From positions 3,205 through 67,204 of the forward strand of contig CAMOGA010000004.1 in assembly GCA_946613885.1 (NCBI GenBank): a stretch of 64,000 nt of DNA. The letters run 5' to 3'. This document shows, in pieces, positions 4,308-24,862 of this stretch (positions are counted from its first letter, which is position 1; every line of letters starts with the position of its first letter). The position numbers and the translations under genes were made by a program. This stretch comes from an uncultured Pseudomonadota bacterium (GTDB lineage: Bacteria > Pseudomonadota > Alphaproteobacteria > Rs-D84). Below the pieces are notes generated by a model. That model was given only the letters and a program-made list of their open reading frames with translations. It ran no database searches and was not told the DNA's origin.

Positions 4308-4336
4308 TTTGCATAAATACTCAAAAAGGTGTTATT

Positions 4337-6501: not shown

Positions 6502-6530
6502 TTCAAATACCTTTTCTAATCACATGTAAA

Positions 6531-7004: not shown

Positions 7005-7006
7005 GA

Positions 7007-8086: not shown

Positions 8087-8096
8087 TTCAAGTAAT

Positions 8097-8170
8097 TGGA
8101 GGCCAGGGTCGGAATCGAACCGGCATCCAAGGATTTGCAGTCCTCTGCATAACCACTCTGCCACCTGGCC
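8097..8170 (-). tRNA. tRNA-Cys (anticodon GCA)
   Basis: Reverse complement GGCCAGGTGGCAGAGTGGTTATGCAGAGGACTGCAAATCCTTGGATGCCGGTTCGATTCCGACCCTGGCCTCCA. It has a 7-bp acceptor stem, anticodon loop CUGCAAA, T-loop TTCGATT, discriminator U73 and encoded CCA. One C-A mismatch in the T stem. Confidence 0.9.
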
Positions 8171-8184
8171 ACTCACACGGGGGT

Positions 8185-8213
8185 ATATTAAGCAAAAAAA
8201 AAATTAATTGCAA
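8185..8213 (-). promoter_or_regulatory. Predicted promoter of tRNA-Cys (TTGCAA-17-TAATAT) with GC-rich discriminator
   Basis: Minus strand: TTGCAA (8213-8208), 17-nt spacer, TAATAT (8190-8185), then ACCCCCCG before the tRNA 5' end. Confidence 0.4.
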
Positions 8214-8290
8214 CATAAAAATTTCATCCCCCAAACAATGAATTTGTTCCGATGTTTTTTACCCAGCAAAAGGCGTAATCTATAAAAGTT

Positions 8291-9610: not shown

Positions 9611-10791
9611 TGGAACCTGAAATCAAAAAAACTTCTTTTATTCAAAGATTTTTCGGATGGATATGGCGGCACAAATGGTGGTCTGGATTGATATTATTAA
9701 TATTGATTGGTGGCGGTATTTGGATATATTTTGGAACCAGAACCAAAAGCAAAGATATGTTAACAGTAGATATTGTGCGTGGCGATATTGTTCAAACTGT
9801 CACCGCCACAGGAGAAATACAACCTGTAAACACTATCAATGTTGGGTCACAGGTATCCGGCACAATCGAAGATATTTTTGTTGATTATAATTCCCATGTA
9901 AAGCAAGGCGATTTATTATTAAAAATTGAACCGTCTGTTTTACAATCTACTGTTGACGAGGCCAAGGCATCTTTGGATTCTGCAAAATCAGAATTAAAAT
10001 ATGCGCGCAGTGAATACGAACGAAATCAATCTTTATATAACGATGGGTTTATATCACGTGCTGAAATGGAAAAATCACAAACAATATATGAACAAGCCGC
10101 CCAAGCGGTTAACAAAGCACAATATTCATACGAACGCGCGGTCACTAATCTGGGATACGCAACAATTACTTCACCTGTGGATGGAACGGTTATTTCACGC
10201 AAAGTAGACAAAGGTCAAACCGTTGCCGCATCTTTCCAAACACCGGATTTATTCGAAATTGCCGAAGATTTATCAAAAATGCAAATTGAAACCGCAGTAT
10301 CAGAGGCCGATATTGGTATGATAAAAGAAGGTCTGCCGGTGACATTTACTGTGGATGCATATCCAAACCAAACGTTTCATGGCAATATTCAACAAATCCG
10401 TTTGTCGCCAACAACGGTATCTAATGTGGTCGTTTATACTGTCGTGATTGATGTAGATAACAGCGATTTAAAATTGATGCCAGGTATGACCGCATTTGTG
10501 ACTGTTGTTGTGGCACAGGCAAAAGATACATGGAAAACAAAAAATTCAGGTTTATTATTAAGGTCTTTTAAAAATATATTTCCAGATGCCCCAGAAAATA
10601 TTACGCCAAAAACACACATGGCGATAAAACGCGGTAAAGATATAATTTTTATTCCATATAAACGTGGAATTACAACACCAACAGACACACAAATCATATC
10701 AGACGAAATTCGTGAAAACGATAAAATTGTTGTCGGGTTTTCTGGTCAAACAACAAATAATAAATCAACCATGCGCGGGCCAAGAATGTAA
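9610..10791 (+). CDS. macA: Periplasmic adaptor (HlyD/MacA family membrane fusion protein)
   Basis: N-terminal TM helix, lipoyl/barrel-sandwich motifs (GEIQPVNTINVGSQVSGTI, ITSPVDGTVISR), coiled coil. Confidence 0.85.
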   Translation: MEPEIKKTSFIQRFFGWIWRHKWWSGLILLILIGGGIWIYFGTRTKSKDMLTVDIVRGDIVQTVTATGEIQPVNTINVGSQVSGTIEDIFVDYNSHVKQGDLLLKIEPSVLQSTVDEAKASLDSAKSELKYARSEYERNQSLYNDGFISRAEMEKSQTIYEQAAQAVNKAQYSYERAVTNLGYATITSPVDGTVISRKVDKGQTVAASFQTPDLFEIAEDLSKMQIETAVSEADIGMIKEGLPVTFTVDAYPNQTFHGNIQQIRLSPTTVSNVVVYTVVIDVDNSDLKLMPGMTAFVTVVVAQAKDTWKTKNSGLLLRSFKNIFPDAPENITPKTHMAIKRGKDIIFIPYKRGITTPTDTQIISDEIRENDKIVVGFSGQTTNNKSTMRGPRM

Positions 10792-11538
10792 ATGAAAAAT
10801 CAACCTGACATTATTGTTATGAAAAAAATTAATAAAACGTTTCCATTGGCAATCGGTGGCGAACAACAGGTTTTATTTGATATAAACTTTATAATTAAAT
10901 CGGGCGAATTTGTCGCAATTATGGGGCCGTCTGGGTCTGGAAAATCAACATGTATGAATATTGTTGGGGCCTTGGATTCTGCGACATCTGGGGTTTATGA
11001 ATTATACGGTAAAGATATTACCACGATGTCTGCTGACGATTTGGCAACAGTGCGAAATGAATACATAGGTTTCGTTTTTCAAAATTTTAACCTGCTGTCA
11101 AAACGCACAATTATCGACAATGTTATGTTGCCGTTAATGTATCGTGGATGGGTTATGAACGACAGAATTATGCGTGCACGCGAAATGTTAAAATTGGTTG
11201 GACTAGAAAAATTTGAAACATATTTTCCAACACAATTATCGGGCGGTATGAAACAACGCGTTGCAATTGCACGTGCATTGGCTGGTAATCCTAAATTAAT
11301 TCTGGCGGATGAACCCACTGGGTCACTGGATTCAAAAATGGGGGACGAGATATTAAAATTTTTTGAAAAGTTAAATCATGATTTTGGAATAACTATCATA
11401 ATGATTACACACGAATTTGAAATCGCACAATATGCTAAACGACTAATTCATATCTATGATGGACGTATTACATACGATGGCATCGTTCCAAAAAACGAAG
11501 GTGTATTATTAAAATCAGAACAACGGCATAAAAAATGA
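10792..11538 (+). CDS. macB: MacB/LolD-type ABC ATPase
   Basis: Walker A GPSGSGKST, signature LSGGMKQR, Walker B LILADEPTGSLD. Confidence 0.9.
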   Translation: MKNQPDIIVMKKINKTFPLAIGGEQQVLFDINFIIKSGEFVAIMGPSGSGKSTCMNIVGALDSATSGVYELYGKDITTMSADDLATVRNEYIGFVFQNFNLLSKRTIIDNVMLPLMYRGWVMNDRIMRAREMLKLVGLEKFETYFPTQLSGGMKQRVAIARALAGNPKLILADEPTGSLDSKMGDEILKFFEKLNHDFGITIIMITHEFEIAQYAKRLIHIYDGRITYDGIVPKNEGVLLKSEQRHKK

Positions 11539-12752
11539 CAATCGGGGATATACTAAAAGAATCTTGGATATCAATCAGCGGAAATAAATTACGGTCTTTT
11601 TTGACAGTACTGGGGATTATTATTGGTGTTATGGCGGTTGTAATTATGGTGGCGGTTGGTGAAACAGTTCAAAAATCTATTACTGACCAATTTTCATCAC
11701 TGGGAACGAACACTATTGTTATTCGTGCAGGCGCAGCGCGCAGTGGTGGTGTTCGCACTGGCAATCGCCAAACATTAACGATTACCGATGCAGAACAAAT
11801 AAAAAAATTACCGGATGTTATGGCAATAACCCCAGCGCAAATGGGGTCTGCTCAGGTTATATATGGCAATAAAAATTGGTCAACGATGATGTTGGGGGCA
11901 TATCCTGACTATGCCACAATCCAAGATATTGACATTGAACATGGAACGTTTTTTGATGATACTGCGGTAAAAAATGCCGCGACATATGCCGTCATTGGAC
12001 CAGATACAGCAACAGAATTAGGGTTATCAGAAAATCCAGTTGGTGAAATCATCAGAATACACAATATGCCATTTGTAATTATTGGTGTTATGAAGGCACG
12101 TGGTGATTCTGCGTTTGGTTCCCAGGATGATATGATTATAATTCCTGTGACAACGTTAAAAAAACGATTACAGGGTTCAAAGTTCCCAGATGCAGTCACA
12201 ATGATTGCATTAAAAATTTTTCCAGATGCAGATAATAATGTTGTTATTGAACAAATAACATCCCTGTTGCGACAAAGACACAGAATCAAAGATACCGATG
12301 AAGATGATTTTCAAATCACAGACATGAAACAAATTATGGAGACAATGGATACCGTGACCGGATATTTGAAATTATTATTAATTGCGATTGCTGCGGTATC
12401 GTTATTGGTTGGGTCTATTGGCATTATGAACATGATGTTAACTTCTGTTGCAGAACGCACGCGTGAAATTGGAATACGCAAGGCAATTGGTGCCAGAGAA
12501 CGTGTGATAATCATCCAATTTTTATCAGAATCTGTTATGATATCTTTTATTGGGTCAATGTTGGGGCTGGTTTTAGGTGTTGGATTATCACAGGGTGTTG
12601 GACGTTTTATTTTACATTACGATGTCCCGTTTTCTATATGGCCGGTGATATTATCTGTGGGTGTGGCGATTGTTGTTGGGTTGGCATCTGGGGTTATGCC
12701 TGCAATCAAGGCCGCAAAATTAAACCCAATCGACAGTTTAAGATATGAATAA
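11535..12752 (+). CDS. MacB/FtsX-type ABC permease with periplasmic domain
   Basis: ATGA overlap with the ATPase gene. N-terminal TM helix, periplasmic domain and C-terminal FtsX-like 3-TM bundle (REIGIRKAIGA). Confidence 0.85.
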   Translation: MTIGDILKESWISISGNKLRSFLTVLGIIIGVMAVVIMVAVGETVQKSITDQFSSLGTNTIVIRAGAARSGGVRTGNRQTLTITDAEQIKKLPDVMAITPAQMGSAQVIYGNKNWSTMMLGAYPDYATIQDIDIEHGTFFDDTAVKNAATYAVIGPDTATELGLSENPVGEIIRIHNMPFVIIGVMKARGDSAFGSQDDMIIIPVTTLKKRLQGSKFPDAVTMIALKIFPDADNNVVIEQITSLLRQRHRIKDTDEDDFQITDMKQIMETMDTVTGYLKLLLIAIAAVSLLVGSIGIMNMMLTSVAERTREIGIRKAIGARERVIIIQFLSESVMISFIGSMLGLVLGVGLSQGVGRFILHYDVPFSIWPVILSVGVAIVVGLASGVMPAIKAAKLNPIDSLRYE

Positions 12753-12756
12753 TGAA

Positions 12757-13677
12757 TTAACGGCTTAACTGTTTTTCTACGTTACGAATTTTGCCCATTA
12801 TTTCACGCATAAATTTAACTTTTTCAATATTATTTTGACAAGTCTTTTCACTTTGTGGGTTTACACGTAAATCATCACCTGCCTTGATAAAGCGTTTTAA
12901 TAATACAGTTATTATTCTGTATCTCATGATATTTTGAACCTCTGGATTACGCAATCCAGGCATTTTATATTTTGTTTTATCATGTAATTTTGTATATAAA
13001 TCATATACACTTCTGCAAATTCCCAAATCAGAAATCATCGGCGAGAAAATATCACGGAATATAAAATTATATTTAGCATCAGCAAAATCAATAAATGACA
13101 ATTTGCTGGTTTTTGCATCGTATAAAACATTACCAGAATTTAAATCTGCATGCGACCATGCTTTGCGGGTTGTGTATTCAAAATTGTCAATGTCTGCGAA
13201 TAAATCTGACATATATTTAATTTCGCCCAAATCAAACCATTTTGGCATTTTATGTTCAATTATATTTTCCAAACGAACCGTTTTCAATTCTTCTGTTAAT
13301 TTATGTGTTTCTTCATCGCCCACAGGTTTTAATTCGTTCATATCGACCAAAAAACTAGCAATACTGTTAATTATTTCAACACGTTGACGTTCTGTTAATT
13401 TGGCATACAAATCTTTGGTTAATGGTTCACCTGGTGCACGTTCTTCCAATAATTGATATTCTTCATCTTTGATAAAAATCATACGTGGGACATTATACAC
13501 AGGATTGCCAACAGACCTGATTTCATCAATAACACCCTTGGTTTTATGCTGTTTTTCCAACCATTTGTCTTTCTGTTCAGGCGAAAATTCGGGCAAAGGG
13601 CGTTTCATAACTAAACAATCGCCAAAATTGACGATGTAAGTTTCTTGACCATGTAATTCTTTTATTTCTGTTTTCAT
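12757..13677 (-). CDS. Phosphotransferase (APH/choline-kinase-like) family protein
   Basis: Catalytic loop HADLNSGNVL and metal-binding IDFADA are typical of the APH kinase fold. Confidence 0.6.
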   Translation of the reverse strand: MKTEIKELHGQETYIVNFGDCLVMKRPLPEFSPEQKDKWLEKQHKTKGVIDEIRSVGNPVYNVPRMIFIKDEEYQLLEERAPGEPLTKDLYAKLTERQRVEIINSIASFLVDMNELKPVGDEETHKLTEELKTVRLENIIEHKMPKWFDLGEIKYMSDLFADIDNFEYTTRKAWSHADLNSGNVLYDAKTSKLSFIDFADAKYNFIFRDIFSPMISDLGICRSVYDLYTKLHDKTKYKMPGLRNPEVQNIMRYRIITVLLKRFIKAGDDLRVNPQSEKTCQNNIEKVKFMREIMGKIRNVEKQLSR

Positions 13678-13740
13678 ACTGTATATTATAGACGCATTTT
13701 TCTTTTTGTCAATACATTTATTATATTTTTATTGTTGTAA

Positions 13741-13769
13741 TTGACAATATTATATTTTTGTGCTATAAA
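13741..13769 (+). promoter_or_regulatory. Predicted promoter (TTGACA-17-TGcTATAAA) of the Fic-like gene
   Basis: TTGACA at 13741-13746 and extended -10 at 13761-13769. This placement excludes the track ATG at 13772. Confidence 0.4.
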
Positions 13770-13792
13770 CAATGACACAACAGGGTTTATTT

Positions 13793-14533
13793 ATGACAAG
13801 TCAGAAAAAAATTTCACAAATCGCTCACAAACGCCACAGCAAGGACAAATGTGCGTGTATTGAACATAATAAAAAAGTCATAAATAAATTATTATCTAAA
13901 AACACAACGAAGCGATTAAATAATCTTAATTGGCTGCGACAAAAAATATCTTTTGAAGAATCTAAAAATTTGTTTTATATGCCAAACAATAAACAATCGC
14001 CCTATTTTGATTACAGTTGCACCCGTGGTCTGGGCAATGCATACGATTATATTATTGAACACCACGACATCGAAAAACCACTAAGTTTATCTGATGTGTG
14101 TCAAATTCATTATTTAATATGCAACCAGGCAAACATCCAAATGAACGATTCTTTTATTCGGGCGGGTGTTATTAATCAAACCTCTATCCCGATGGAGATT
14201 GAAAACCAATTAGAAAATATTATTTTTCAATCTACGCATAATGATAAAAAAACCTTCTTTCAGGCATTTGATTTGCATTATCAAATAATACTGTTGCAAC
14301 CATTTGATGATTATAATAAACGTACTGCGCGTATGGTTATGAATTGGTATTTAATAAAAAACGGGTATCATCCAATTGCCTTTACCAAAAAAAACGACAA
14401 AACAAAATACCCAGAATCTTTATTAAAAATGAAACAAAATCATGCGGATTTTTACTATGAATACATGATTCAATCAATGCTGCATACACAAACTGAGATT
14501 ATTAATCAATTACGAGCATTAAAAATTTATTAA
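13793..14533 (+). CDS. Fic/DOC-family protein with degenerate active-site motif
   Basis: LLQPFDDYNKRTARMVMNWYLIKNGYHPIAF matches the Fic core HPFxxGNGRxxR, but with Q for H and YNK for GNG. Confidence 0.6.
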   Translation: MTSQKKISQIAHKRHSKDKCACIEHNKKVINKLLSKNTTKRLNNLNWLRQKISFEESKNLFYMPNNKQSPYFDYSCTRGLGNAYDYIIEHHDIEKPLSLSDVCQIHYLICNQANIQMNDSFIRAGVINQTSIPMEIENQLENIIFQSTHNDKKTFFQAFDLHYQIILLQPFDDYNKRTARMVMNWYLIKNGYHPIAFTKKNDKTKYPESLLKMKQNHADFYYEYMIQSMLHTQTEIINQLRALKIY

Positions 14534-14549
14534 TTTTTTAATTCCGTGA

Positions 14550-14578
14550 TTTACAATTTTTTATTATCTTGGTATGAT
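14550..14578 (+). promoter_or_regulatory. Predicted promoter (TTTACA-17-TATGAT), 8 nt upstream of ATG 14587
   Basis: TTTACA at 14550-14555 and TATGAT at 14573-14578. Confidence 0.4.
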
Positions 14579-14586
14579 AATACAAA

Positions 14587-15672
14587 ATGCGTATGAATAA
14601 ATTTATTTTATTTACAGTTATTTGTGGCATGTGTGTATCGCACGTGTGGGGTGCAAGTAATGAATTAACAAAAATTCAAAACCAAATAAAAAAAACAGAA
14701 CAACAAAATAAACAAATTGAACAAAAATTAAAAAATTCAAATCGTGATGTTGAAAAAACAAAAAAACAGTTGGTAAAAACTGCTGACCGTGTTAATGACT
14801 TGGAAGAACAACGTGGCGTATTAATCAAACACATCGCAGAATTAGATAAACAACGCGATAAAATTAATGCAGATTTAATACAAAATCACGATGCGATTAC
14901 CAATGCAACGGCGGGTATGTTGTTTGTTGCAATGCATCCAAATTTTGATGCAAAAAATATGCATGATTATGTTTTAACAAATACTATATTGGCATCTGCG
15001 GCAAACCAATTTGATGTGCAAATTATGGATGCCACAAAAAAATTACGCGAATTGGACACTATTCATGAACAACGCACGATTGAAAAAGAAAAATTGGACC
15101 GCAGTGCAAAAAAATATTCAAATGAAAAACGCGAATTAGATAAATTGTTAAAAACACGTTCAGCACAAAATCAAAAATTAAAAAACGAACAAATTGAAAT
15201 ACAAAAAAAATTAAAGAAATTGTCTGCTGCTGCAAAAAATATTTCTGAATTGTCTGCGGGTGTCGGTTCGTCTGCGATGTCTGGGGATGCAAAATTTTCA
15301 AAACGAAAATTAAACACACCTGTACGTGGTAAATTGGTTGTACGATATGGTGAAAAAACGGCACTGGGGTTAAAATCAGACGGATGGCGCATACGTGCAC
15401 GCGGTAATGCATTGGTTATGGCACCTGCTGATGGGGTTGTTAAATTTGCTGATTCTTTCCGTGGGTTTGGTCGTGTAATTATTATGTCACATAAAAATGG
15501 GTATAATACTGTTATGACAAACATGGGGTCAATCGAAGCCATGGTCGGTCAGGAAGTATTAGCAGGTGAACCAATTGGACGTATGAACGAAAATAAACCT
15601 GAAATGTATTTAGAGGTCAGACGCGGAAAAAATTCCGTAGATCCGGCAAATTTATTTAACGAACCAAAATAA
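14587..15672 (+). CDS. envC: EnvC-like coiled-coil protein with degenerate LytM (M23) domain
   Basis: Signal peptide, long K/E/Q coiled coil and a C-terminal M23 fold. The HxxxD and HxH metal ligands are replaced (PEMYLEVRRG instead of PHLHFE). Confidence 0.75.
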   Translation: MRMNKFILFTVICGMCVSHVWGASNELTKIQNQIKKTEQQNKQIEQKLKNSNRDVEKTKKQLVKTADRVNDLEEQRGVLIKHIAELDKQRDKINADLIQNHDAITNATAGMLFVAMHPNFDAKNMHDYVLTNTILASAANQFDVQIMDATKKLRELDTIHEQRTIEKEKLDRSAKKYSNEKRELDKLLKTRSAQNQKLKNEQIEIQKKLKKLSAAAKNISELSAGVGSSAMSGDAKFSKRKLNTPVRGKLVVRYGEKTALGLKSDGWRIRARGNALVMAPADGVVKFADSFRGFGRVIIMSHKNGYNTVMTNMGSIEAMVGQEVLAGEPIGRMNENKPEMYLEVRRGKNSVDPANLFNEPK

Positions 15673-15673
15673 A

Positions 15674-16654
15674 TTAAAATTCAAAACGCAACCCAATCAT
15701 TAAATTGGTATATATCATATCTTTAGCAGAAAACCAATCGCGATGCATTGATGCATCAGAATTAACCAATTGCCATGTAATTTTTGGAATATACATTATG
15801 CGCGCCGAAAAATCTAAAAACGTATATTCACTGATTCCATAAGACAATCCCAAATCACCGATTACCGCGATATTTTCAGATGATGGATATTTCGATTTAT
15901 CGGTTGGTGGTTCAAATTGCAAAACACCGTCTTCATCAGGTGTCCCATAATTTTGTAAATCCGAATCCGTAGATAAATCACCATAAATATCCGCCAATTT
16001 TAATGTTGTTTTTGATGTCGCATACCCCAACCCAAAACCAACATACGGAACAATTTGATTCAATGGTTTTTTATACCCTTCGAAAAAATCATAATGCGCC
16101 ATCACAGATATAATATCTGTGGAAATTGTTGATGTTGCGCCACTGCTGGATACATGAACAACCGCATTTCCAATATCACCACCAGTGGTATTCAAATTAC
16201 CCTGAAATAAAGGAATTTGATTATAATCTGTTTCTGCGATATGGTCATAGCCCGCACTTAATCGCCATTGTGGATAATACGGAATTGTAAAACCGATATC
16301 CGCCCCCGCGGTAAATGCAACCTTAGAAAATTTTTCTTTGGCTGGTAATGTAGATAAATCCCCATATCCTGCATTAACATAACCAGTCGGTTCACCAGCC
16401 GCCACCCAAGCCATGGCCGACACAACATCACCTGTTGTTTGGTTTATGTAATAATATCCATACAAATTACCAACATCATTATTCATTTTGGCGTTTGCCA
16501 ATGACAGTCCACCACGCACACCAACAACAAAACGTGTATTATCTTCGTTATAATAACCATCGTTTATGTAATACCCGTCATATTGCCACCCGGCAAACGC
16601 AGGCGTTGCACACAACAACATCATTGTAAAAAATAAAGATTTTTTTAATTTCAT
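15674..16654 (-). CDS. Outer-membrane beta-barrel protein
   Basis: Signal peptide ...TPAFA, alternating aromatic/Gly beta-strand pattern, C-terminal ...GLRFEF ending in Phe. Confidence 0.65.
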   Translation of the reverse strand: MKLKKSLFFTMMLLCATPAFAGWQYDGYYINDGYYNEDNTRFVVGVRGGLSLANAKMNNDVGNLYGYYYINQTTGDVVSAMAWVAAGEPTGYVNAGYGDLSTLPAKEKFSKVAFTAGADIGFTIPYYPQWRLSAGYDHIAETDYNQIPLFQGNLNTTGGDIGNAVVHVSSSGATSTISTDIISVMAHYDFFEGYKKPLNQIVPYVGFGLGYATSKTTLKLADIYGDLSTDSDLQNYGTPDEDGVLQFEPPTDKSKYPSSENIAVIGDLGLSYGISEYTFLDFSARIMYIPKITWQLVNSDASMHRDWFSAKDMIYTNLMIGLRFEF

Positions 16655-16694
16655 CGTGCAATTATTATATCACAAAAAATACATCAAACAAAGA

Positions 16695-16719
16695 ACAAAA
16701 AAATGCCCAAATGGGCATT
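16695..16719 (-). terminator. Rho-independent terminator after the BOF/YgiW gene
   Basis: Minus strand: AATGCCC-attt-GGGCATT followed by T7. Confidence 0.55.
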
Positions 16720-16720
16720 T

Positions 16721-17074
16721 TTATTTAACAATTGAATTAACATCAATTTCTGTGTAATTAGAACCCTTGTCCACGTTGCCATAAACCGTCACAATGTCGT
16801 CAACACGAACAGTGTTTCCGTTCCAAGATTCTTCATCGATTTCCAACATAACTGTTCCAGAACCATCTTCAAATACAAACATATTGTTCCCCATATTTTT
16901 TGTAATACGACCACGCATCACAACCGGTGTATCATCTGGCAAAGACATAACCTCAGTCACGGTCCAAACGGCCGGATGATTGTTTGTGTTGTTATTCATA
17001 TTTTTACCTGGACCTGCAAATGCGCCACAAATTGGCAACACCGCAACCAGTGCCAAAACAGATATTTTTTTCAT
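16721..17074 (-). CDS. ygiW: Periplasmic bacterial OB-fold (BOF, YgiW/YdeI family) protein
   Basis: Signal peptide plus VVMRGRITKNMGNNMFVFEDGSGTVMLEIDEESWNG...EIDVNSI, which resembles my recollection of E. coli YgiW (not alignment-checked). Confidence 0.75.
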   Translation of the reverse strand: MKKISVLALVAVLPICGAFAGPGKNMNNNTNNHPAVWTVTEVMSLPDDTPVVMRGRITKNMGNNMFVFEDGSGTVMLEIDEESWNGNTVRVDDIVTVYGNVDKGSNYTEIDVNSIVK

Positions 17075-17151
17075 GATTTTTCTCCTTTGTGCATTTTGCT
17101 TTCCACGGCAACATTATACCAACGAATCGATATAGAATAACATAGGAACGA

Positions 17152-17176
17152 ATTGAAAAACCGCCCAATTGGGCGG
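17152..17176 (-). terminator. Rho-independent terminator after the 878-aa gene
   Basis: Minus strand: CCGCCC-aatt-GGGCGG followed by TTTTT. Confidence 0.6.
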
Positions 17177-17181
17177 TAAAA

Positions 17182-19818
17182 TTACAACAATTTAACCTTG
17201 GTTGTAGTGGTTTGTGCCTCTTCCCATTCTTTGCAATAATTCTTTTTCGTCTTTTTGCAATTTTGGGTTGTGGTTTCTTTGGTGCATTCACCTGTTGATC
17301 TGTCAAATGTGGTTGACACTTTCATTTTATAATTCCAATTATTAACTTCCGAATTTCCAATAACCCCACCAGAAGCTGCGATAGATGCTGATGCAACGGT
17401 ACCAGCCACAACGGCTGCGCCAGCCACAACCGTCCCTATTGCGGTTTCTGTTCCTACTATAGAACCTATTATTCCTGCCCCAACTGCCGCACCTGTACCA
17501 GCCGTAAACACAGCCGCCACCACGGATGCCGCCGCGATAACCCCTACAGCAATCCATTTACCAACCTCATTGGCTTTCGGTGTTGCGGTATTCGGTAAAG
17601 TACTCCTTTCTGCCCAATCATAACATAATTGTTCTGCGGCATTTTTATTTTGTTCGCCTGCCATTTTAATCTGGTCTTGCATCATACGCGTCATTTCTTC
17701 ATCATATTTTTTGTTGTAATTTTCACGCGCCTTTTTCAATGCCTTGGTTGCAATTCTTTCACGCAAACTGTTTGTTAAATTCGGAAAGCGCGCATTTTCT
17801 TTACCAATCTTACCAAATTTTTTACCATCAAAACCTTCAACCTGACGACCGGTCATACAGTATATAACGTTCGGATCAGATTCAATGGCATGTATTGTGG
17901 TTTCGACACTGTTTTCCAATGCACGAATTTCAACACCATATACTAAATCAGCAATAATATCTTTATCTTCTTTGGCTAATTTATGTCCCGCCTGTTGCAG
18001 TTTTTGCATATATTCATCAACAGTTGTAAATCCATATTCGCCAGTTTTTGGATTTTTCAATGTATATTCAATATCACCCCAATACACAACACCAGACAAT
18101 TTACCCGCCCAACCTTTGCCTTCGGGTTGAGAAACATCTTTTGAAGAAATTCCATCCGCAGATTCACGACAATCCGATGTCCATGTTATTTCGTTACCGG
18201 ATATGCTGTCGTATTTACAAACCTGATATTTGAACGAACGCGAACCCGCCAATTCATCCAATGCGAAATTATTACAATCATCGGTATCACCACAAACCTT
18301 AACTGTTGCCTCGTCCAATGCCTTTTGACATGCAGTGAATAAATCATTATCAATTTGCAATGCGACACCCTGGGCAATTTGCGCGACATAATCACGCACA
18401 CTGTCTTTGTCATAATCGGTCATACATGCGACCAATTTTTCTTCTGGGCACATATTGCCAATTGTTTCTGTATCTAAACCGATGCATTTTGAATAATCTG
18501 CACCACAAATATCGGTCAAACATTCTTTAACCTCGGTCGTACAAGCATCAACACGCATTGCCCCTAAACGCGCGACAACATAATCCCAAATTGCAGGTTC
18601 CATACGTTCACATGGATCAATTTGTACTTTACAGAAAGAACGTGCCATATCCGGTTTTGCCAGACATGCATCCATTGTTGCAACACCTTTGCCCGCAATA
18701 TCATCTTTACACGCCTTTTGAATACATGTTGAAATATCACCCATACATGATTGGCGTTTTTGTGATTCTATATTTTGTTCTGCCAAACGAATTGTTGGTG
18801 CAGATTCACGCAAGAAATCATCCCACACATAATCACGCACCGAAACACATTGATCCAAAACCTTTTCACAAATAAAACGTTTAGAATCTAATCTTTCCAT
18901 TGTAGATGCGGTTATATCGTATTTTTTTATTGTTTCAACCTTGGTACCGGCTGTACTGACGGCACGGTTATTTTGCATATTTTCAGCCGCAATAGTAAAC
19001 ACACATTGCCCCCAATCAGAACCACATGCATCATCACCCATCATACATTTTTTAAATTCAACCATACACGTTCCGCGGTCATATTTGTTTGATTGTGCCA
19101 AAGAATCTTTTAACGCGCCACGCACAGCCGCCTGAGCAGATTTTAATGCCGCGTTGGCTTCTTGTTTTTTCTGGGTTATGCTGTTTGCCAATCCTTTGCA
19201 ATCCGAAGTAATTTGACGCAAATACATCTGTGTTAATAATTTCATATCTTTACTGCAAGAATCAGGAACCTGTTTTTGACATAATTTATTTGCAGAATCA
19301 TATAATGCACGACCAGTTAAATCTGACAGTTCTTCATCATCAAAAGCATCTTCGTCATCATCGTAAATTGAAGACCATTTAACTGTTGTTTTTTCTTTTT
19401 CTTGTGGTTTATTTTTTAATTTCTGAACAGAACCGTCCGCATTATAAACCCTTTCGCCACCACCAAATATAATATCTGCGTTGGCACCCGCCTGAACTTT
19501 TTCAACCTCTTCAGTACTAATACGTTCGGCCTCGGCCAAAGTTTTTCTGATTTCTTCTAAATCAGATTCATATTTTTTGGATTCATCACTGCAAGAACAC
19601 GAACCTCCATTTTCATTATCAACAATACAAAAATTATCCATACATGCATAATATGTATTATAACATTCTTCGTCATAAACCCCGGTTGCCTCTACTCTGG
19701 CCCGAACCTTAGTTCCACCAGTAATTGCGGAAGATTTAGAAGCAGCAAACGAATCGCCTGTTATAGCAAACACACCCAACAAACCGACAAATAAACCAAA
19801 CCTAAAAAAGTGCTTCAT
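17182..19818 (-). CDS. CMD-box cysteine-rich secreted protein, paralog A (878 aa), with C-terminal Gly-zipper hydrophobic region
   Basis: GGAGAGAGAG SD, signal peptide (..DSFA|AS), about 36 Cys, motif CYNTYYACMDNFCIVDNENGGSCSCSD. Colinear with the 894-, 725- and 772-aa ORFs. No family recognised. Confidence 0.85.
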   Translation of the reverse strand: MKHFFRFGLFVGLLGVFAITGDSFAASKSSAITGGTKVRARVEATGVYDEECYNTYYACMDNFCIVDNENGGSCSCSDESKKYESDLEEIRKTLAEAERISTEEVEKVQAGANADIIFGGGERVYNADGSVQKLKNKPQEKEKTTVKWSSIYDDDEDAFDDEELSDLTGRALYDSANKLCQKQVPDSCSKDMKLLTQMYLRQITSDCKGLANSITQKKQEANAALKSAQAAVRGALKDSLAQSNKYDRGTCMVEFKKCMMGDDACGSDWGQCVFTIAAENMQNNRAVSTAGTKVETIKKYDITASTMERLDSKRFICEKVLDQCVSVRDYVWDDFLRESAPTIRLAEQNIESQKRQSCMGDISTCIQKACKDDIAGKGVATMDACLAKPDMARSFCKVQIDPCERMEPAIWDYVVARLGAMRVDACTTEVKECLTDICGADYSKCIGLDTETIGNMCPEEKLVACMTDYDKDSVRDYVAQIAQGVALQIDNDLFTACQKALDEATVKVCGDTDDCNNFALDELAGSRSFKYQVCKYDSISGNEITWTSDCRESADGISSKDVSQPEGKGWAGKLSGVVYWGDIEYTLKNPKTGEYGFTTVDEYMQKLQQAGHKLAKEDKDIIADLVYGVEIRALENSVETTIHAIESDPNVIYCMTGRQVEGFDGKKFGKIGKENARFPNLTNSLRERIATKALKKARENYNKKYDEEMTRMMQDQIKMAGEQNKNAAEQLCYDWAERSTLPNTATPKANEVGKWIAVGVIAAASVVAAVFTAGTGAAVGAGIIGSIVGTETAIGTVVAGAAVVAGTVASASIAASGGVIGNSEVNNWNYKMKVSTTFDRSTGECTKETTTQNCKKTKKNYCKEWEEAQTTTTKVKLL

Positions 19819-19840
19819 CTCTCTCTCCGTGTAAAATGGT

Positions 19841-22018
19841 TTACATATTTATGTCTTCACAAGATTCGATTTGCTGACAAAAATCGGTTTTCCCGCCAGA
19901 TTGATACCCCAACACACCGGCACCAACCGCACCAACAACACCACCAATTGCCGTTCCCCATCCAGCATTTATCATTGTTCCTGCGGATGCGCCTGCGGAC
20001 AAACCACCGGCTGCTGCCTTCAATGCGGCGGTTGATTTTTTCTCGCCACCTTGTTCGCAAACCTGTTGCATACGACACACATGACAATTACGTGTATTTG
20101 GTTCAAACGAAACACTTTTTATATACATGTAATTTGATTTTGAATTCTTTGGTTGTTCTGCTTTGTATGTATTCAAACAAACCTGTTCCGCCTTGCTTAC
20201 ATCAGCTTTGCGTGTTAATTCTGCAATTTTCGTATCTAATTCACGCAAATTACGATTTTCTGCTGACATTTTTGCCAATAATTTTGCGGTATTAAATACA
20301 TTTGTTCCCAAAGAATTTTTTCCTTTCAATTTTTTACCACTGCCACTTTGTGAATCAGCGCATGCCGCAACCGTCTTGTCACGTTCAAATTGTTTGAAAA
20401 ATTCTTCAACAGACGCATCAGAGGCAGCGATTATCTTTGCACGCAAATTCGCAGATTTTGATTCAGTATCAGGCAGTTCTGTTAATTTTTCTACATCGTT
20501 TACAATTGGTAAACACGCCATATCTGTCCCACAAACCTTGCTTAATTGTTCACTAAAATAATTTACACAACCTGTTAACATCTGGTAATCCATTTGCAGA
20601 ATCGCAGATTGCACAATTATATCAAATTGAACTGCATTTTTACACGATGGGAACATACTCTGTGGACACAATGCTACAATTTCATACGATTTTTTACCAA
20701 CACATTCTGGTTTAGTAAAATCAACACCGCATTTATCTTGCAAGCATTTATCAACATCATTTTCACAGAATTTTGTCTGTAAATACCCCAGTTTATCATT
20801 AATTACAGATTGAAACCCAGGAATCATGTCATTACATTCTGTGATAACTGGACATATTCCAGCCGCCACATTAACATTAGTCAAACATTCCGCATTTGTA
20901 GATGTAGAACAACTTTCTTCCAAACAATTTTGAACACGTGCCAAACACGTTCCACGCTTGTTTGTATCTGCGTATTTTGCCGCCTCTGCCAGAACGCTTT
21001 TGGATTCAGCCGCCCAATCTTCGACAACATAATCACGTACCGCCATACACTGATCCAGAATATTATCACACGCATTTGAACGACGTTGCAATAATCCTGC
21101 ATCCAGACAGTTTTCAAAATTTGCACCACAACCACCCTTGTCTGCTATGCACGCACGATATGCCAACAAACATTCGCCACGATTGTATTTGTTTGTTGTG
21201 TCCAACATTTCCAAACGCGCTTTGCGAACCGCAGATTCCGCAATACGTTTATTAGATTCTGCATTTGCCTTTTGTTCTTTCAAATACGCATCATAAGTTT
21301 TGCAATCTTGGGTCACCATACGAGAATATAACAATTCTTCCATTTTTGCCCTATCACCACATGCCGCCAAATCTGGTTTACAATATTTTACCGCCATACC
21401 ATACAAAGAATCGCCAATTTCCACATCTTCATCCAAATCGCCACTATCATCACCAGATAACCAAGACATAAAATCTATACTGGAAATTTTCTGACTGGCC
21501 GGCGCATCATCTTTGAACACCAATCGTGCCTTGGCACCCAATTGTTCACGTTCGACACCTTCGGTAAACAATTTGTCGGCTTCTTCTTGAATTTTTAAAA
21601 CTTCATTAATTTTACTTTTGGCGCGTTCTATATTATCAGAACATGCGCAACGTTCACCCTGGCTTTCATCCAACAAACAAAAATTATCCATACATTCACG
21701 ATACGCATCACGACAATCGTTTGACGATACAACCGCATCATCAGACGCATCAACCATATCATCATCCGAATCGTCTGCAACATCATCATACACAGGCAAT
21801 GCCTGAGCCGCCGCAACAGTGTCGGCAGTAATCATTGCCCCAGCCGAAGTCGAAGTATTTGTATTTGTTTGTATGGCTTTGCCGGCCATACCTGGCATAC
21901 GTGCCGATGTTTGATTATTTCTGCTGACCCCAACGCGAACCTCGCTATCCCCGCGAGATGCCGCAAACGCGACCATTGGAACTAATAAAACCAACGGTAA
22001 AATTTTTATTATTTTCAT
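19841..22018 (-). CDS. CMD-box cysteine-rich secreted protein, paralog B (725 aa), with Gly-zipper near the C-terminus
   Basis: ATG 22018 (MKIIKILPLVLL...) lies 9 nt after an AGAGGGA SD. Contains CRDAYRECMDNFCLLDESQGERCACSD. Stop is 22 nt upstream of the paralog A start, suggesting an operon. Confidence 0.85.
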   Translation of the reverse strand: MKIIKILPLVLLVPMVAFAASRGDSEVRVGVSRNNQTSARMPGMAGKAIQTNTNTSTSAGAMITADTVAAAQALPVYDDVADDSDDDMVDASDDAVVSSNDCRDAYRECMDNFCLLDESQGERCACSDNIERAKSKINEVLKIQEEADKLFTEGVEREQLGAKARLVFKDDAPASQKISSIDFMSWLSGDDSGDLDEDVEIGDSLYGMAVKYCKPDLAACGDRAKMEELLYSRMVTQDCKTYDAYLKEQKANAESNKRIAESAVRKARLEMLDTTNKYNRGECLLAYRACIADKGGCGANFENCLDAGLLQRRSNACDNILDQCMAVRDYVVEDWAAESKSVLAEAAKYADTNKRGTCLARVQNCLEESCSTSTNAECLTNVNVAAGICPVITECNDMIPGFQSVINDKLGYLQTKFCENDVDKCLQDKCGVDFTKPECVGKKSYEIVALCPQSMFPSCKNAVQFDIIVQSAILQMDYQMLTGCVNYFSEQLSKVCGTDMACLPIVNDVEKLTELPDTESKSANLRAKIIAASDASVEEFFKQFERDKTVAACADSQSGSGKKLKGKNSLGTNVFNTAKLLAKMSAENRNLRELDTKIAELTRKADVSKAEQVCLNTYKAEQPKNSKSNYMYIKSVSFEPNTRNCHVCRMQQVCEQGGEKKSTAALKAAAGGLSAGASAGTMINAGWGTAIGGVVGAVGAGVLGYQSGGKTDFCQQIESCEDINM

Positions 22019-22044
22019 ATGAAACATTCCCTCTTTACCGTTTT

Positions 22045-22073
22045 ATTTTATCAAAAAATATGTCTGGTTGCAA
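22045..22073 (-). promoter_or_regulatory. Predicted promoter (TTGCAA-17-TAAAAT) of the paralog B-A operon
   Basis: Minus strand: TTGCAA (22073-22068) and TAAAAT (22050-22045). Confidence 0.4.
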
Positions 22074-22150
22074 GAGACAACGTAAAAAATCCTTGCATTT
22101 TATTTTTTGACTAATATCATTATAAGTAATTGAAAAACAAGGTTATTAAT

Positions 22151-22405
22151 ATGGCAAAAGATGATGTAATTGTTTTTTCTGGTGTTGTTGAAGACAGATT
22201 ACCAAACACTATGTTTCATGTCCGGTTGGAAAACGGTCATGTGATTTTGGCAACTGTTTGTGGTAAAATGCGCAAGGCACGCATCTGGGTCAACGTTGGT
22301 GAAAAGGTTCATGTTGAAATGACACCGTATGATTTAGACAAAGGTCGTATTACATTTGTTGAGCGTAAAAATGCCGGAACCGAAGGCGCACCCAACCATC
22401 AATAA
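22151..22405 (+). CDS. infA: Translation initiation factor IF-1 with a 12-aa C-terminal extension
   Basis: [42 protein letters not shown]...[12 protein letters not shown]. The track start at 22130 is TTG; ATG is at 22151. Confidence 0.95.
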
Positions 22406-22406
22406 A

Positions 22407-22430
22407 CAAACCACATTTTGTGGTTTTTTT
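22407..22430 (+). terminator. Rho-independent terminator after infA
   Basis: AAACCACA-tttt-GTGGTTT followed by a T run. Confidence 0.55.
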
Positions 22431-22490
22431 ATTTTTTTATTCTTGCTTAAAATATTCTGTTTTTGTTATCATTATCTGTGAAAGTAAAGG

Positions 22491-24809
22491 ATGAGAAAAA
22501 TTTGTCTGATTTTAATCGGGCTTGTGTTGTGCATTAATAATGTTAATGCGGCTGTTCGTAATACTAACACACAAAATACAAGACAAATTGTATCCCCAAG
22601 AAATGATGTGAACACAATTGTTCGTGCAACCACGCAAAAACGTACTGTCACACAACGTTCATCTGGCAAAAATCAGAATACATCTGTGCGCGGAACTGCT
22701 AAAAAAACAGTAATTGGTCGTTCTGCAACGCAACCGATTACGTCTGCACGTAATAATATTGCACAACCAACCCGCGTATCACGTGCTGCAACAAATAATA
22801 TAAAAACACGTACATTTGGTGATAATTATAATTCATGTCGCGATGCATACTTTACGTGTATGGATCAATTTTGTGCAAATGTAAATGAAAATTATCGTCG
22901 CTGCGTTTGTTCGTCTAAATTAAAAGATATTCAAAACAAAGAAAAATTATTATCACAAACATCAACCAATCTGCAAAGTTTCGAAGATTTTAATATTGAT
23001 GCGATTTCAAAAACTGCCGCTGAGGTAAAAGCAATGGGTTCTGCAACAGCCGGTGAATCCGCAATAAAAAAAGACACATCTGCCAGTGCAAAAACATTAA
23101 ACAGCGTCAGTAGTGTTTTAAGTGATACAAAAAAACAATCTTTATCAACCGCTGGGAAATTAGATGCGGGTGGCGACATCAAAACAATCTGGGCAACAAC
23201 CGATTTTATTGGTGGTGCAGATATTGCCAATCTGACAGGCGATGCATTATTTAATGCAGTTCATTCACAATGCGCAGAAATGGTTGCTGAATCTTGTGCA
23301 GATTCTAATTTGAAAATGGTATCTTCTGCATATGGAATGTATATTGAAAATGATTGTGCGGTATTAGAAAATAACCTGAATAAAAAAACAACCGCGGCAA
23401 ATGCATCAATACGAACAACGCGTCATAAAATGCAGGACGCACGTTTGGAAAATTATAATGCACACAATTCATTAAATCTGGATGATTGTATTGCACGTGT
23501 TCGTTCAGATATTATCGCGGATACCGCATGTGGTGATGGATATATTCATTGTTTAGATTTTTCCGGTAAATATTTAAATATCACAACAGGTGCACCAATT
23601 TATTCGCCAGATTTTTACCAAATCGAAAATCAAATATCTTTATCTGGTGATGTTTTAAATAACAGTCAAAATTCATCGTTTATTACGATGCTGAACAAAA
23701 AACGGGCATTTGCCAAAAAAGATTTAGATTTATGTGTTGATGATGCAGATTATGTATGGAACGAATTTTTACGTCAGGCATTGGTTGAAATTTATCAGGG
23801 TCAACAAAAACGTGTTCAAAATGTAAAAAATGAATGTTTACAGGTTGTAAATGAATGTTATTTGAATCAATCTGAATCTTTGAAAAATTTTACAGATTCT
23901 TCTTCGCAAATGATATTCGTGCAATCGCTGGAATTATCCGAAGAAATGTGTGCTGAAAAACTGGATACTTGCAGCAACCTGTACGGTGGTGGCCCAGAAG
24001 GGTTAAACACATTAATTGCAACAATGACTGGCATAACAGATTTAACCATAGAACAATCATGTCCTGCGTTATTGGCAACATATGCTCAATCTATATGCAC
24101 CCCACCTGCCAGCGATTCTGCACATGCATATCCATACGGGTGTCGTAAATATGCGCCTGGTGAATCGTATTATGCCCGTAATGAAATATGCAATACAACA
24201 CTTGTAAATCCGTTTTCACGCTCTGATATTTTAACAACACACACAATGTCTTTGGGATATGCAGATTATGCCGGATATTGTGAAGATAAATCATATAATA
24301 AAATATATACCAGTTGTAATGTCGGATATTATTTACATAACACTGAATGTGCAAATTCAGACAGGGTTCTTTATGATTTTTGTTTACTTAACGCAACAGA
24401 ATGTCTTAAATGTCCTGATAATTTAATATGCCCTGGTGGGACAAAGGCGCCTGTTTCGATTGATGATGATTTGTACCAAAATTGCGGACAATATTATGTT
24501 GGCAGTTTATACCAACAATTGGTTATATACGCATTGCAAAATTGCACACGAACAACAAATACATCAAATGTGTTATCAGAATATCTGTTGTCAGAGGTTG
24601 ATAAAGTAGCAACCAGTGTTCGTATGTCTTTGGTATCTGCTTTGTCCAAAGAATGTTCCGATATGAACGGGTTGTGGGTTGATGCAATATGGTCAGATGA
24701 CAACAATGACGGATACCATGATAAAACTGGGGATACATTATTTGGTGATTTCTATGTTGCAACGGGCGCGAATAAATTGTGGGGTTATTGTAAAAATCCA
24801 AACCAATAA
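22491..24809 (+). CDS. CMD-box cysteine-rich secreted protein, paralog C (772 aa), with CxxCP-type C-terminal module
   Basis: Signal peptide (..NNVNA|AV), R/T/N-rich region, CRDAYFTCMDQFCANVNENYRRCVCSS and later family motifs. The C-terminus contains CLKCPDNLICPGG. Confidence 0.85.
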   Translation: MRKICLILIGLVLCINNVNAAVRNTNTQNTRQIVSPRNDVNTIVRATTQKRTVTQRSSGKNQNTSVRGTAKKTVIGRSATQPITSARNNIAQPTRVSRAATNNIKTRTFGDNYNSCRDAYFTCMDQFCANVNENYRRCVCSSKLKDIQNKEKLLSQTSTNLQSFEDFNIDAISKTAAEVKAMGSATAGESAIKKDTSASAKTLNSVSSVLSDTKKQSLSTAGKLDAGGDIKTIWATTDFIGGADIANLTGDALFNAVHSQCAEMVAESCADSNLKMVSSAYGMYIENDCAVLENNLNKKTTAANASIRTTRHKMQDARLENYNAHNSLNLDDCIARVRSDIIADTACGDGYIHCLDFSGKYLNITTGAPIYSPDFYQIENQISLSGDVLNNSQNSSFITMLNKKRAFAKKDLDLCVDDADYVWNEFLRQALVEIYQGQQKRVQNVKNECLQVVNECYLNQSESLKNFTDSSSQMIFVQSLELSEEMCAEKLDTCSNLYGGGPEGLNTLIATMTGITDLTIEQSCPALLATYAQSICTPPASDSAHAYPYGCRKYAPGESYYARNEICNTTLVNPFSRSDILTTHTMSLGYADYAGYCEDKSYNKIYTSCNVGYYLHNTECANSDRVLYDFCLLNATECLKCPDNLICPGGTKAPVSIDDDLYQNCGQYYVGSLYQQLVIYALQNCTRTTNTSNVLSEYLLSEVDKVATSVRMSLVSALSKECSDMNGLWVDAIWSDDNNDGYHDKTGDTLFGDFYVATGANKLWGYCKNPNQ

Positions 24810-24825
24810 AATTAATATGATAAAA

Positions 24826-24852
24826 AAACACCCGCGATTCATCGGGTGTTTT
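24826..24852. terminator. Bidirectional terminator between paralog C and clpX
   Basis: ACACCCG...CGGGTGT hairpin flanked by an A run upstream and a T run downstream. Confidence 0.55.
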
Positions 24853-24862
24853 TTTATTTGTT

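Follow-up and report, generated by a model that had tools for sequence, protein, structure and literature searches.

The window analysed here (the whole 64-kb stretch of DNA) carries three large open reading frames that a sequence-only reading had described as members of one Cys-rich secreted family. All three are real and paralogous genes, to which the strands have been added here, and a fourth paralog, D894, lies elsewhere in the window (Table 1). In blastp comparison the relationship among the first three is far beyond chance (A-B, 3e-54; A-C, 2e-23; B-C, 3e-12) and D894 is 37% identical to A878. Cys residues account for 4.1-5.0% of the A, B and C proteins vs 0.83% of the window's 40 other proteins; the 36 residues counted in A878 agree with the earlier estimate. 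HMMs built from the family modules match only A to D within the window, and X728 (37455-39641), considered as a distant member, was rejected (hhalign probability 1.9%, with the signal peptides alone aligned). The window encodes further Cys-rich exported proteins, one of them with ephrin-receptor/TNFR-like repeats.

Table 1. Genes of the Cys-rich family and associated sequence features, in positions of the window
Feature	Position	Strand	Remarks
A878 gene	17182-19818	minus	878 aa, 36 Cys
B725 gene	19841-22018	minus	725 aa, 36 Cys; alternative start at 22027 (728 aa)
C772 gene	22491-24809	plus	772 aa, 33 Cys; most divergent paralog
D894 gene (fourth paralog)	40717-43401	minus	outside the A/B/C locus, downstream of rplQ
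Promoter-like site for the B-A operon	22045-22073	minus	TTGCAA, 17-nt spacer, TAAAAT; TG extended -10
B-A intergenic spacer (22 nt)	19819-19840	minus	SD GGAGAGAGAG; without terminator
Intrinsic terminator after A878	17160-17177	minus	ACCGCCCAATTGGGCGGT, then T run
Bidirectional terminator hairpin between C772 and clpX	24819-24858		
CMD box of A	19591-19665	minus	residues 52-76, C-x6-CMD-x-FC-x9-C-x-C
Gly/Ala-rich hydrophobic insertion of A878	17356-17568	minus	residues 751-821; pLDDT <50
Glycine-zipper hydrophobic segment of B (putative membrane anchor)	19910-20050	minus	residues ~657-703

The 725-aa start of B725 is favoured, with the SD sequence GAGGG located about 10 nt 5' of it, and is backed by a recorded 725-aa protein (P0389) that is 100% identical to B725. 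The promoter-like site lies 27 nt upstream of this start. Together with the SD in the B-A spacer, the terminator after A878 and the position of B directly upstream of A, it supports a B-A operon, as had been suggested from the short gap and its strong SD. D894 has its own promoter and SD, and an exact-sequence look-up for it matched no record. The Rfam scan yielded a tRNA alone, without any cis-regulatory RNA. Codon usage puts the family in the middle of the ranking (0.58-0.61), beside PGK and ClpP; very high expression is not indicated, and codon adaptation was dropped as an uninformative proxy for expression.

All four proteins start with an N-terminal hydrophobic segment that has the properties of a signal peptide, followed in A, B and C by an AxA-type site, which bears out the cleavable-looking signal peptides described before. 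The basic S/T/N/R-rich stretch said to come next is found in the C type (median charge +14) and the D type (+9), but A has only a short stretch at this place and that of B is slightly acidic. In A878, the signal peptide precedes a helical Cys core (residues 45-520), an α/β domain (530-750), the Gly/Ala-rich hydrophobic stretch and a small β domain (822-878); a long hydrophobic segment of this kind is present in 17 of 119 A-type orthologs (14%). In B725 an S/A/V/T-rich linker joins the signal peptide to the shared helical Cys core, after which come the glycine-zipper segment and a short Cys tail. The glycine-zipper (36% Gly, about 16 residues from the C-terminus) is kept in 124 of 127 B-type orthologs and may anchor B in a membrane; its resemblance to the glycine-zipper Pfam profiles is weak, with sub-threshold matches for B (E = 0.05-0.26) and for two relatives (one at 5e-4 with PF13488, one at 7e-4). 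In C772, a basic, T/S/R/N-rich disordered linker of ~90 aa separates the signal peptide from a helical core that is missing two Cys pairs and is followed by a Cys-rich C-terminal domain of its own. No lipobox of the form L-[AS]-[GA]-C was found, and the A and B signal peptides contain no Cys. The C-type signal peptide has a conserved L-F-L-C (Cys14 in 96%); a lipoprotein is nevertheless unlikely, because this lipobox is atypical, having Leu at position -1, and seven residues past Cys14 comes V-N-A↓A, a canonical site for SPase I.

The family signature is the CMD box, which is invariant in all four paralogs. It is the first in a series of colinear Cys motifs that had been assigned to A, B and C; the second motif, the later instances of the fourth, and the fifth occur in A and B only and are missing from C772. 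The third is present with the spacing C-x2-[IV]LDQC rather than C-x3, and in C772 as DADYVWNEF, as reported. A four-Cys module is duplicated within the protein (hhalign probability 94%). In the AlphaFold2 models (mean pLDDT 79.9 for A878 and 75.2 for C772) helices of up to 58 residues are predicted, with pLDDT 86-96 over the core. The Cys spacings C-x6-C and C-x4-C fall on helices, and CxxC, CxxCH and His-containing motifs are absent.

The failure to place the core in a named domain family was confirmed by every search undertaken. In Pfam-A and NCBIfam none of the four proteins, and none of 41 C-type and 48 A/B/D-type relatives scanned singly, matched a profile above its cut-off; PADLOC and PHROGs profiles did not match, a PDB sequence search returned nothing significant, and no relatives were found on viral contigs. 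Foldseek comparison of the two confident AlphaFold2 models with PDB (cut-off E<=1e-3) and BFVD gave no significant match. DUF2664, a betaherpesvirus tegument domain (PMC7000910), was reached by C772 at E = 0.03 and by 8 of the 41 C-type members (best E = 0.0014, below cut-off), and was judged a chance resemblance. Both the family and, in so far as the models can be compared with PDB and BFVD structures, its predicted fold look new.

More than 960-1285 relatives were obtained per query, falling into 879 representative clusters at 50% identity; none is a named protein, and those with a named source all belong to MAGs of gut or rumen Alphaproteobacteria or Candidatus Enterousia, while cluster records gave no taxon for the divergent members. 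The family is therefore lineage-specific as had been thought and confined, as far as seen, to reduced-genome gut Alphaproteobacteria of the order Rs-D84. A, B and C each form a single-copy orthologous group, and in 76 of 80 species genomes the genes lie in the order C, infA, B, A. Full-length identity across the clade is 68-79% for B and 57-80% for C; in A the C-terminal half is conserved at 0.13-0.48 vs 0.70-0.88 for the core. Values of dN/dS for the family (0.07-0.25) lie in the same range as those of the neighbouring OMP, M23 peptidase and TolC genes. These fixed positions and the purifying selection imply that the family must do something central, and they contradict the notion of an expanded family of variable antigens at the A/B/C locus. 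Besides infA and clpXP, the conserved neighbourhood comprises genes of the envelope (BOF, an OMP β-barrel, an EnvC-like M23 peptidase and CtpA), and the peptidoglycan enzymes SLT and M23 are retained. A link to type I secretion (T1SS) through the nearby TolC-HlyD-MacB genes was rejected, these genes not being syntenic in relatives. A Fic-domain gene also occurs close to the locus. The D type, found after rplQ in most relatives, is the most diverse subfamily (89 of 149 best representatives; the contigs of two, P0121 and P0124, are too short for gene context), and its copy number varies, from one here to four in tandem in the close relative L084.

Against a non-Cys identity of ~0.62-0.68 the cysteines are nearly invariant: 34 of 36 in 119 A-type orthologs, 29 mature Cys in 118 C-type orthologs, and all 36 conserved at 96% or more in 127 B-type orthologs. 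Mature Cys numbers are even throughout the A type (119/119) and in 95% and 94% of the B- and D-type sequences, respectively. Cys residues 370 and 385 are both gone in 25 sequences and never singly, residues 358 and 403 are lost together in five and singly in none, and 534 and 550 are gained together. Conserved, even-numbered and pairwise lost or gained cysteines are what places the family in the general class of disulfide-bonded exported proteins, and ~14-18 disulfides per protein can be argued from them, with the connectivity read from Cys co-loss alone. We infer that these bonds form, and the family is very probably disulfide-stabilised, as the sequence-only reading had proposed. The even counts in A, B and D point mainly to intramolecular staples and not to intermolecular cross-links. 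Some observations count against a disulfide scaffold. The rarity of A878's long hydrophobic stretch among its orthologs and the mid-table codon usage do not favour it. The C-type proteins mostly have an odd number of Cys; and the lineage is reported to be without a respiratory chain (PMC12306168), which, with no Dsb-type oxidase or Dsb system encoded in the 64-kb window, leaves the route of oxidation unexplained.

We propose, with about even confidence for and against, that A, B, C and D together constitute a disulfide-stapled helical scaffold of the cell envelope. The four anciently diverged paralogs, exported through Sec, would each fold into an elongated bundle of long α-helices, derived in part from the duplicated four-Cys module. 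The ~14-18 intramolecular disulfides would hold these helices together, and C-terminal domains particular to each subtype would come after them. One transcript would encode both B and A, B being anchored in a membrane by its conserved C-terminal glycine-zipper hairpin, and C and D would extend long, basic, disordered N-terminal tails. Jointly the paralogs may build a stable, protease-resistant and probably heteromeric structure that serves envelope integrity or contact with partner cells. The periplasm, or a periplasmic face, is the default site because no device for translocation across the outer membrane is evident. The organism's classical periplasmic and outer-membrane proteins are nearly devoid of Cys, however, so the Cys-rich set may occupy a different compartment, e.g. 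the cell surface. A bolder version appears unlikely to us: that at least four heavily disulfide-stapled helical paralogs of a new fold form a new envelope or surface structure, which replaces lost envelope functions or acts as an interface for attachment and feeding with a partner cell. The lineage has genomes smaller than 1 Mb that encode many unexplained membrane proteins, and it is predicted to depend on partner organisms (PMC12306168).

Among the other explanations, a role as surface adhesins, in which a stapled helical stalk presents variable C-terminal domains and forms a protease-resistant coat in the gut, is a possibility we hold only tentatively. The predicted partner-dependence of the lineage (PMC12306168), the poorly conserved C-terminal half of A, the variable copy number at the rplQ locus, and the other Cys-rich exported proteins in the window beside nearly Cys-free ordinary envelope proteins all speak for it. 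Yet the signals that could take an 800-aa protein through the outer membrane (autotransporter, T1SS, T2SS, sortase, lipobox) are all missing, the TolC-HlyD-MacB genes are non-syntenic, and B and C are conserved over their whole length with low dN/dS. An envelope lattice or adhesin, as the earlier reading had envisaged, is not supported. The even Cys counts bear on a different use of the thiols, as ligands of metals such as Zn or Fe or as a redox buffer that scavenges oxidants, as has been suggested for the Cys-rich coats that anaerobic protists carry. The odd counts of the C type, the anaerobic life without a respiratory chain (PMC12306168) and the lack of a visible Dsb system in the window would suit such a role, which is improbable in view of the helical C-x6-C and C-x4-C spacings, the missing CxxC, CxxCH and His-containing motifs, the even numbers seen for 94-100% of the A-, B- and D-type proteins, and a loss of Cys that is strictly pairwise and not by threes or fours.

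Secreted toxins or pore-forming effectors, whose glycine-zipper would insert into target membranes, are suggested by the zipper segments of B and of the window's A, by weak similarity of these to the class II bacteriocin and C19orf12 glycine-zipper profiles, and by the Fic-domain gene. We consider this very unlikely, since only B retains the zipper, PADLOC matches none of the proteins, neither an immunity gene nor a toxin domain is present, and the genes are single-copy core genes with conserved housekeeping synteny under purifying selection. Still less credible are surface antigens undergoing antigenic variation: the family does have several paralogs, and the D type is diverse and differs in copy number between relatives, but A, B and C have one ortholog each at fixed positions, the full-length identities of B and C are high, dN/dS is low, and there are neither silent cassettes nor flanking repeats.

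Bacteria of the Rs-D84/Enterousia group occur widely in the guts of humans and livestock, and none has ever been brought into culture (PMC12306168). The four ~800-aa genes of this orphan family occupy ~9.8 kb, around 1% of a genome of this size, and give work on the lineage's cell envelope by antibodies, cryo-ET or proteomics a concrete target. A new fold with 14-18 predicted disulfides per chain is probable, and there is the question of how so many cysteines become oxidised in an anaerobe that has no respiratory chain; should the bolder reading of a new structure be true, its assembly in a strict anaerobe would imply an unrecognised oxidative-folding route. If the proteins form an ordinary periplasmic scaffold, the value lies mainly in annotating ~900 "hypothetical" protein clusters.

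Several known systems share features with the family. Giardia VSP and trypanosome VSG resemble it in concept, as protease-resistant, Cys-rich or helical coats in a gut or host; CxxC repeats, homology and antigenic-variation genetics are lacking here, and the genes, each present once at a syntenic position, evolve under purifying selection. The Helicobacter Hcp proteins are likewise secreted helical repeat proteins with paired, disulfide-stapled helices, and a Cys module is duplicated here too, but the present proteins are 3-4 times larger, differ in Cys spacing and match no Sel1/SLR profile. PDB holds structures of both Hcp and VSG, and Foldseek matched neither at E<=1e-3. TraN, the outer-membrane mating-pair stabilisation protein of F-like plasmids, is also large and Cys-rich, with a signal peptide and many conserved disulfides (putative in this family); there is no match to the TraN profile in Pfam or to TraN in PDB by sequence or fold, and the present genes belong to the chromosomal core, where conjugation genes are absent from the neighbourhood. 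The G/A-rich hydrophobic C-terminal hairpin that B shares with some A proteins recalls SlyB/Pcp, the Rickettsia 17-kDa antigen and Gly-zipper_Omp; those are small lipoproteins alike in the short segment, which here is a C-terminal appendage on a 700-aa non-lipoprotein. In Chlamydia, disulfides of OmcB/OmcA and MOMP are thought to stiffen the envelope. The comparison with chlamydial Cys-rich envelope proteins drawn earlier holds as a functional analogy only: these too are exported, very Cys-rich proteins of a reduced-genome bacterium dependent on a host or partner. Homology is absent (no match to Pfam Chlam_OMP6 or Chlam_OMP3 at E<=1), and the present organism, unlike the chlamydial setting, keeps its peptidoglycan enzymes; its proteins have a predicted long-helix rather than β-rich fold, in which the even Cys numbers suggest intramolecular staples in place of an intermolecular network.

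The three large ORFs described in the sequence-only reading (A878, B725 or simply B, and C772) were found at exactly the positions it gave, and their products contain 4.1-5.0% Cys, compared with 0.83% in the 40 other window proteins. By blastp the three are clearly homologous (A-B, 3e-54; A-C, 2e-23; B-C, 3e-12), so the claim of three paralogs was right, but it had missed a fourth, D894 (37% identity to A, E=1e-133); a family-built profile matched only these four proteins in the window. An alternative in-frame ATG at 22027 would extend B to 728 aa; the 725-aa start is preferred because of its better Shine-Dalgarno spacing and because P0389, a recorded protein identical to B, also has 725 aa. 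The B-A gap is 22 nt, GGAGAGAGAG stands before the start codon of A, and the two genes have no terminator between them. Together with a promoter-like site and a strong terminator 3' of A, this bears out the suggested operon, and co-transcription of B and A is a secure part of our interpretation. C772 stands after infA and the infA terminator.

Coordinates of family genes and other features (window positions unless the related locus L084 is named)
Feature	Positions	Strand	Remarks
RecF/SMC-like ATPase ORF	7007-8176		GTG start as mechanically listed
tRNA gene	8100-8170	minus	Rfam, 60.7 bits
Fic/DOC-domain protein	13772-14533	plus	E=1.5e-10
Hairpin terminator after A	17177-17160		strong
A878	17182-19818	minus	ORF, 878 aa, 36 Cys
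B725	19841-22018	minus	ORF, 725 aa, 36 Cys
Promoter-like site, extended -10	22073-22045		TTGCAA, 17-nt spacer, TG-n-TAAAAT
C772	22491-24809	plus	ORF, 772 aa, 33 Cys
Cys14 of C772	22530-22532		within signal peptide, L-F-L-C-I-D context
Bidirectional terminator ending C772	24819-24858
X728	37455-39641	minus	large, exported, 23 Cys, PDPDPNPDP linker, glycine-zipper stretches
318-aa protein	39734-40690	plus	N-terminal transmembrane segments, acidic E/P-rich linker, no Pfam match
D894	40717-43401	minus	fourth paralog
Ephrin-like protein	45296-46339	minus	347 aa, signal peptide, 11% Cys, ephrin-receptor-like/TNFR-like repeats
U552	46411-48069	minus	large, exported, 38 Cys (6.9%)
L084, ephrin-like gene	3260-4381		just upstream of rpoA
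L084, tandem array	6301-19432 (ENA ERZ1667816 scaffold_65)		downstream of rplQ; four family genes, 857-1106 aa
L084, gene similar to that of the 318-aa protein	20227-20889		beside X728-like gene

Among the five Cys motifs proposed earlier, motif 1 (the "CMD box") is present in all four proteins, while motifs 2 and 5, together with the later instances of motif 4, occur in A, B and D and are missing from C772. Motif 3 exists with the spacing C-x2-[IV]LDQC instead of C-x3, and its counterpart DADYVWNEF in C772 had been read correctly. The basic stretch said to follow the signal peptide holds for the orthologs of C772 (C-type, strongly basic, median net +14) and D894 (D-type, +9); A has only a short stretch there, and that of B is slightly acidic.

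No match to A, B, C or D was obtained in Pfam-A or NCBIfam, to 89 relatives scanned singly in Pfam, or to the family in PADLOC and PHROGs; three family profiles matched no PDB sequence at E<=10. A below-threshold similarity to DUF2664, a betaherpesvirus tegument domain, was the only recurrent weak match and was treated as chance. AlphaFold2, run with family alignments, gave usable models of A878 (mean pLDDT 79.9, pTM 0.56) and C772 (75.2, 0.54), for which Foldseek returned nothing at E<=1e-3 in PDB (both models) or BFVD (A878). The failure to place the core in a named domain thus extends to profile, PDB-sequence and structure searches: the family is new, and the fold, as modelled and compared with these databases, is probably new. 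The models predict an all-alpha core common to the family (about residues 50-510 in A; pLDDT 86-96), its longest helices reaching 58 residues. In the A model it is followed by an alpha/beta domain (530-750), a Gly/Ala-rich hydrophobic stretch of low confidence (751-821) and a small C-terminal beta domain containing three Cys, whereas C ends in a Cys-rich domain of its own. Profile-profile comparison identifies a four-Cys module, C-x6-C-x4-6-C-G-x-D-[YFW]-x2-C, duplicated within A at residues 245-330 and 418-470 (hhalign 94%, E=1e-7). A glycine-zipper segment lies about 16 residues from the C-terminus in 124/127 B-type proteins and occurs in only 17/119 A-type proteins; the window's A is therefore atypical in carrying its long insertion.

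Searches of 5.8 billion proteins gave some 1000 or more relatives for each of A, B and C, all lacking a Pfam domain; every named one is a "hypothetical protein", and the named source organisms are MAGs of Alphaproteobacteria and Candidatus Enterousia, in keeping with the proposed lineage specificity. When 1.84 billion representatives were searched exhaustively by HMM, 879 clusters passed a cut-off of E<=1e-3 and 486 a cut-off of E<=1e-30. Relatives are encoded at 452 places in GTDB species genomes; the best 80 come without exception from MAGs of rumen or faecal origin, whose labels read Enterousia, Alphaproteobacteria or "Rickettsiales". Viral contigs yielded no relatives, and rplQ had no family gene nearby in 65 loci with an L17 protein sharing only 49-65% identity with that of the window; these loci are taken to belong to more distant bacteria. 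Genomes of this lineage, the order Rs-D84, measure about 0.75-1.0 Mb and lack the TCA cycle and respiratory chain, and a dependence on partner organisms is presumed (PMC12306168).

The order [C, infA], [B, A], BOF is kept in 76/80 species genomes, the exceptions being mostly truncated contigs. The dN/dS values are 0.07-0.17 against a near-identical relative, 0.10-0.13 against an 80%-identical one and 0.16-0.25 against more distant ones, a range matching the adjacent OMP, M23 peptidase, TolC and HlyD genes. Relatives with ClpX 88-92% identical retain 69-74% identity in B, 61-65% in C and about 54% in A; D-type identity is 40-59% where L17 is about 90% identical. By these comparisons A, B, C and D are four old orthologous groups, not recently expanded or switching, which argues against the expanded variable antigens of the sequence-only reading and makes antigenic variation a less likely role. 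The rplQ locus gives the only sign of plasticity: L084, a close relative (RpoA 92%, SecY 93% identical), has four tandem family genes where the window has one, and the rplQ-downstream site looks like a copy-number-variable hot spot. The L084 genes are 33-44% identical to D894; between and beside them are small ORFs rich in Cys and a fragment of a family gene.

The remainder of the window is ordinary chromosome, encoding clpP-clpX, infA, a BOF protein, an OMP beta-barrel, an EnvC-like M23 peptidase, a Fic protein, TolC-HlyD-MacB, CtpA, PFOR, pgk, SLT and the secY-rpoA-rplQ ribosomal cluster. The Fic/DOC gene lies in a conserved envelope-gene neighbourhood, diverges fast (44% identity in relatives with ClpX 88-92% identical) and is missing at the corresponding position in another related locus, L086. 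The tRNA gene overlaps the 5' end of the ATPase ORF, whose true start must therefore be further downstream.

Cysteines are invariant at 34/36 positions in 119 A-type orthologs (the other two co-occur), conserved at 96% or more at 36/36 in 127 B-type proteins and invariant at 29 mature positions in 118 C-type proteins; non-Cys positions are only 62-68% identical. Mature counts are even in 119/119 A-type, 95% of B-type and 94% of D-type proteins. Across 144 diverse members, Cys loss is strictly pairwise: Cys370/385 are both lost in 25 sequences and Cys358/403 in 5, one alone in 0 in either case. Cys258, 317 and 426 (with 433) are lost jointly in the C-type clade, and Cys534 and 550 were gained together. 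Disulfide partners produce such a pattern, although joint loss inside one clade amounts to a single evolutionary event. That the many cysteines behave as partners in putative cystines is a secure part of our interpretation, and the suggested disulfide stabilisation gains support. Metal binding or thiol buffering is less likely, since paired loss is hard to obtain from metal clusters; the family has no CxxC, CxxCH or His-rich motifs, and its C-x6-C and C-x4-C spacings lie on predicted helices. C-type mature counts are mostly odd (31 or 29), leaving one potentially unpaired Cys that could bond intermolecularly, e.g. in a homodimer. Cys14 of C772, in an atypical lipobox with a canonical SPase I site seven residues later, is kept in 96% of C-type orthologs within an otherwise poorly conserved region; lipidation there is possible but unlikely. 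Oxidation of the predicted 14-18 cystines per protein is a problem for any disulfide model in an anaerobe reported to have no respiratory chain.

Export, lineage restriction and disulfide richness stand from the earlier interpretation: a conserved, Sec-exported, lineage-restricted, long-helix family, with a conserved hydrophobic glycine-zipper in B, is secure. We suggest that B would anchor the paralog set in a membrane and that the paralogs would together build a stable scaffold with a structural role in the envelope, by default in the periplasm because no device for outer-membrane crossing was seen. That same observation weighs against the main rival, a protease-resistant adhesin or coat exposed on the cell surface, which draws support from variability in the C-terminal half of A, a lifestyle that depends on partners and the contrast between almost Cys-free classical periplasmic and outer-membrane proteins (OMP, BOF, M23, TolC, HlyD and CtpA have 0-1 mature Cys) and at least seven very Cys-rich exported proteins in 64 kb (A-D, the ephrin-like protein, X728 and U552). 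A toxin role is less likely than either.

X728 and U552 have no Pfam match and lack the A-D family modules. The ephrin-like gene adjoins rpoA within the ribosomal-protein/rpoA cluster; its Pfam matches (Ephrin_rec_like, E=4e-5, just above cut-off; TNFR_ELAPOR1_6th, E=1e-5) recur in its L084 counterpart (about 33% identical), and its repeats look eukaryote-like, with mimicry or acquisition from a gut protist as possible origins. The gene for the 318-aa protein, between D894 and X728, may encode a conserved partner of that locus.

The envelope scaffold is a putative function, and the family offers a well-defined starting point, open to testing, for studying the cell biology of a gut lineage that is abundant and uncultured. 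By the profile, PDB-sequence and fold comparisons above, it falls outside the chlamydial OmcB, Helicobacter Hcp/Sel1 and TraN families, to which its resemblance would be functional at most.
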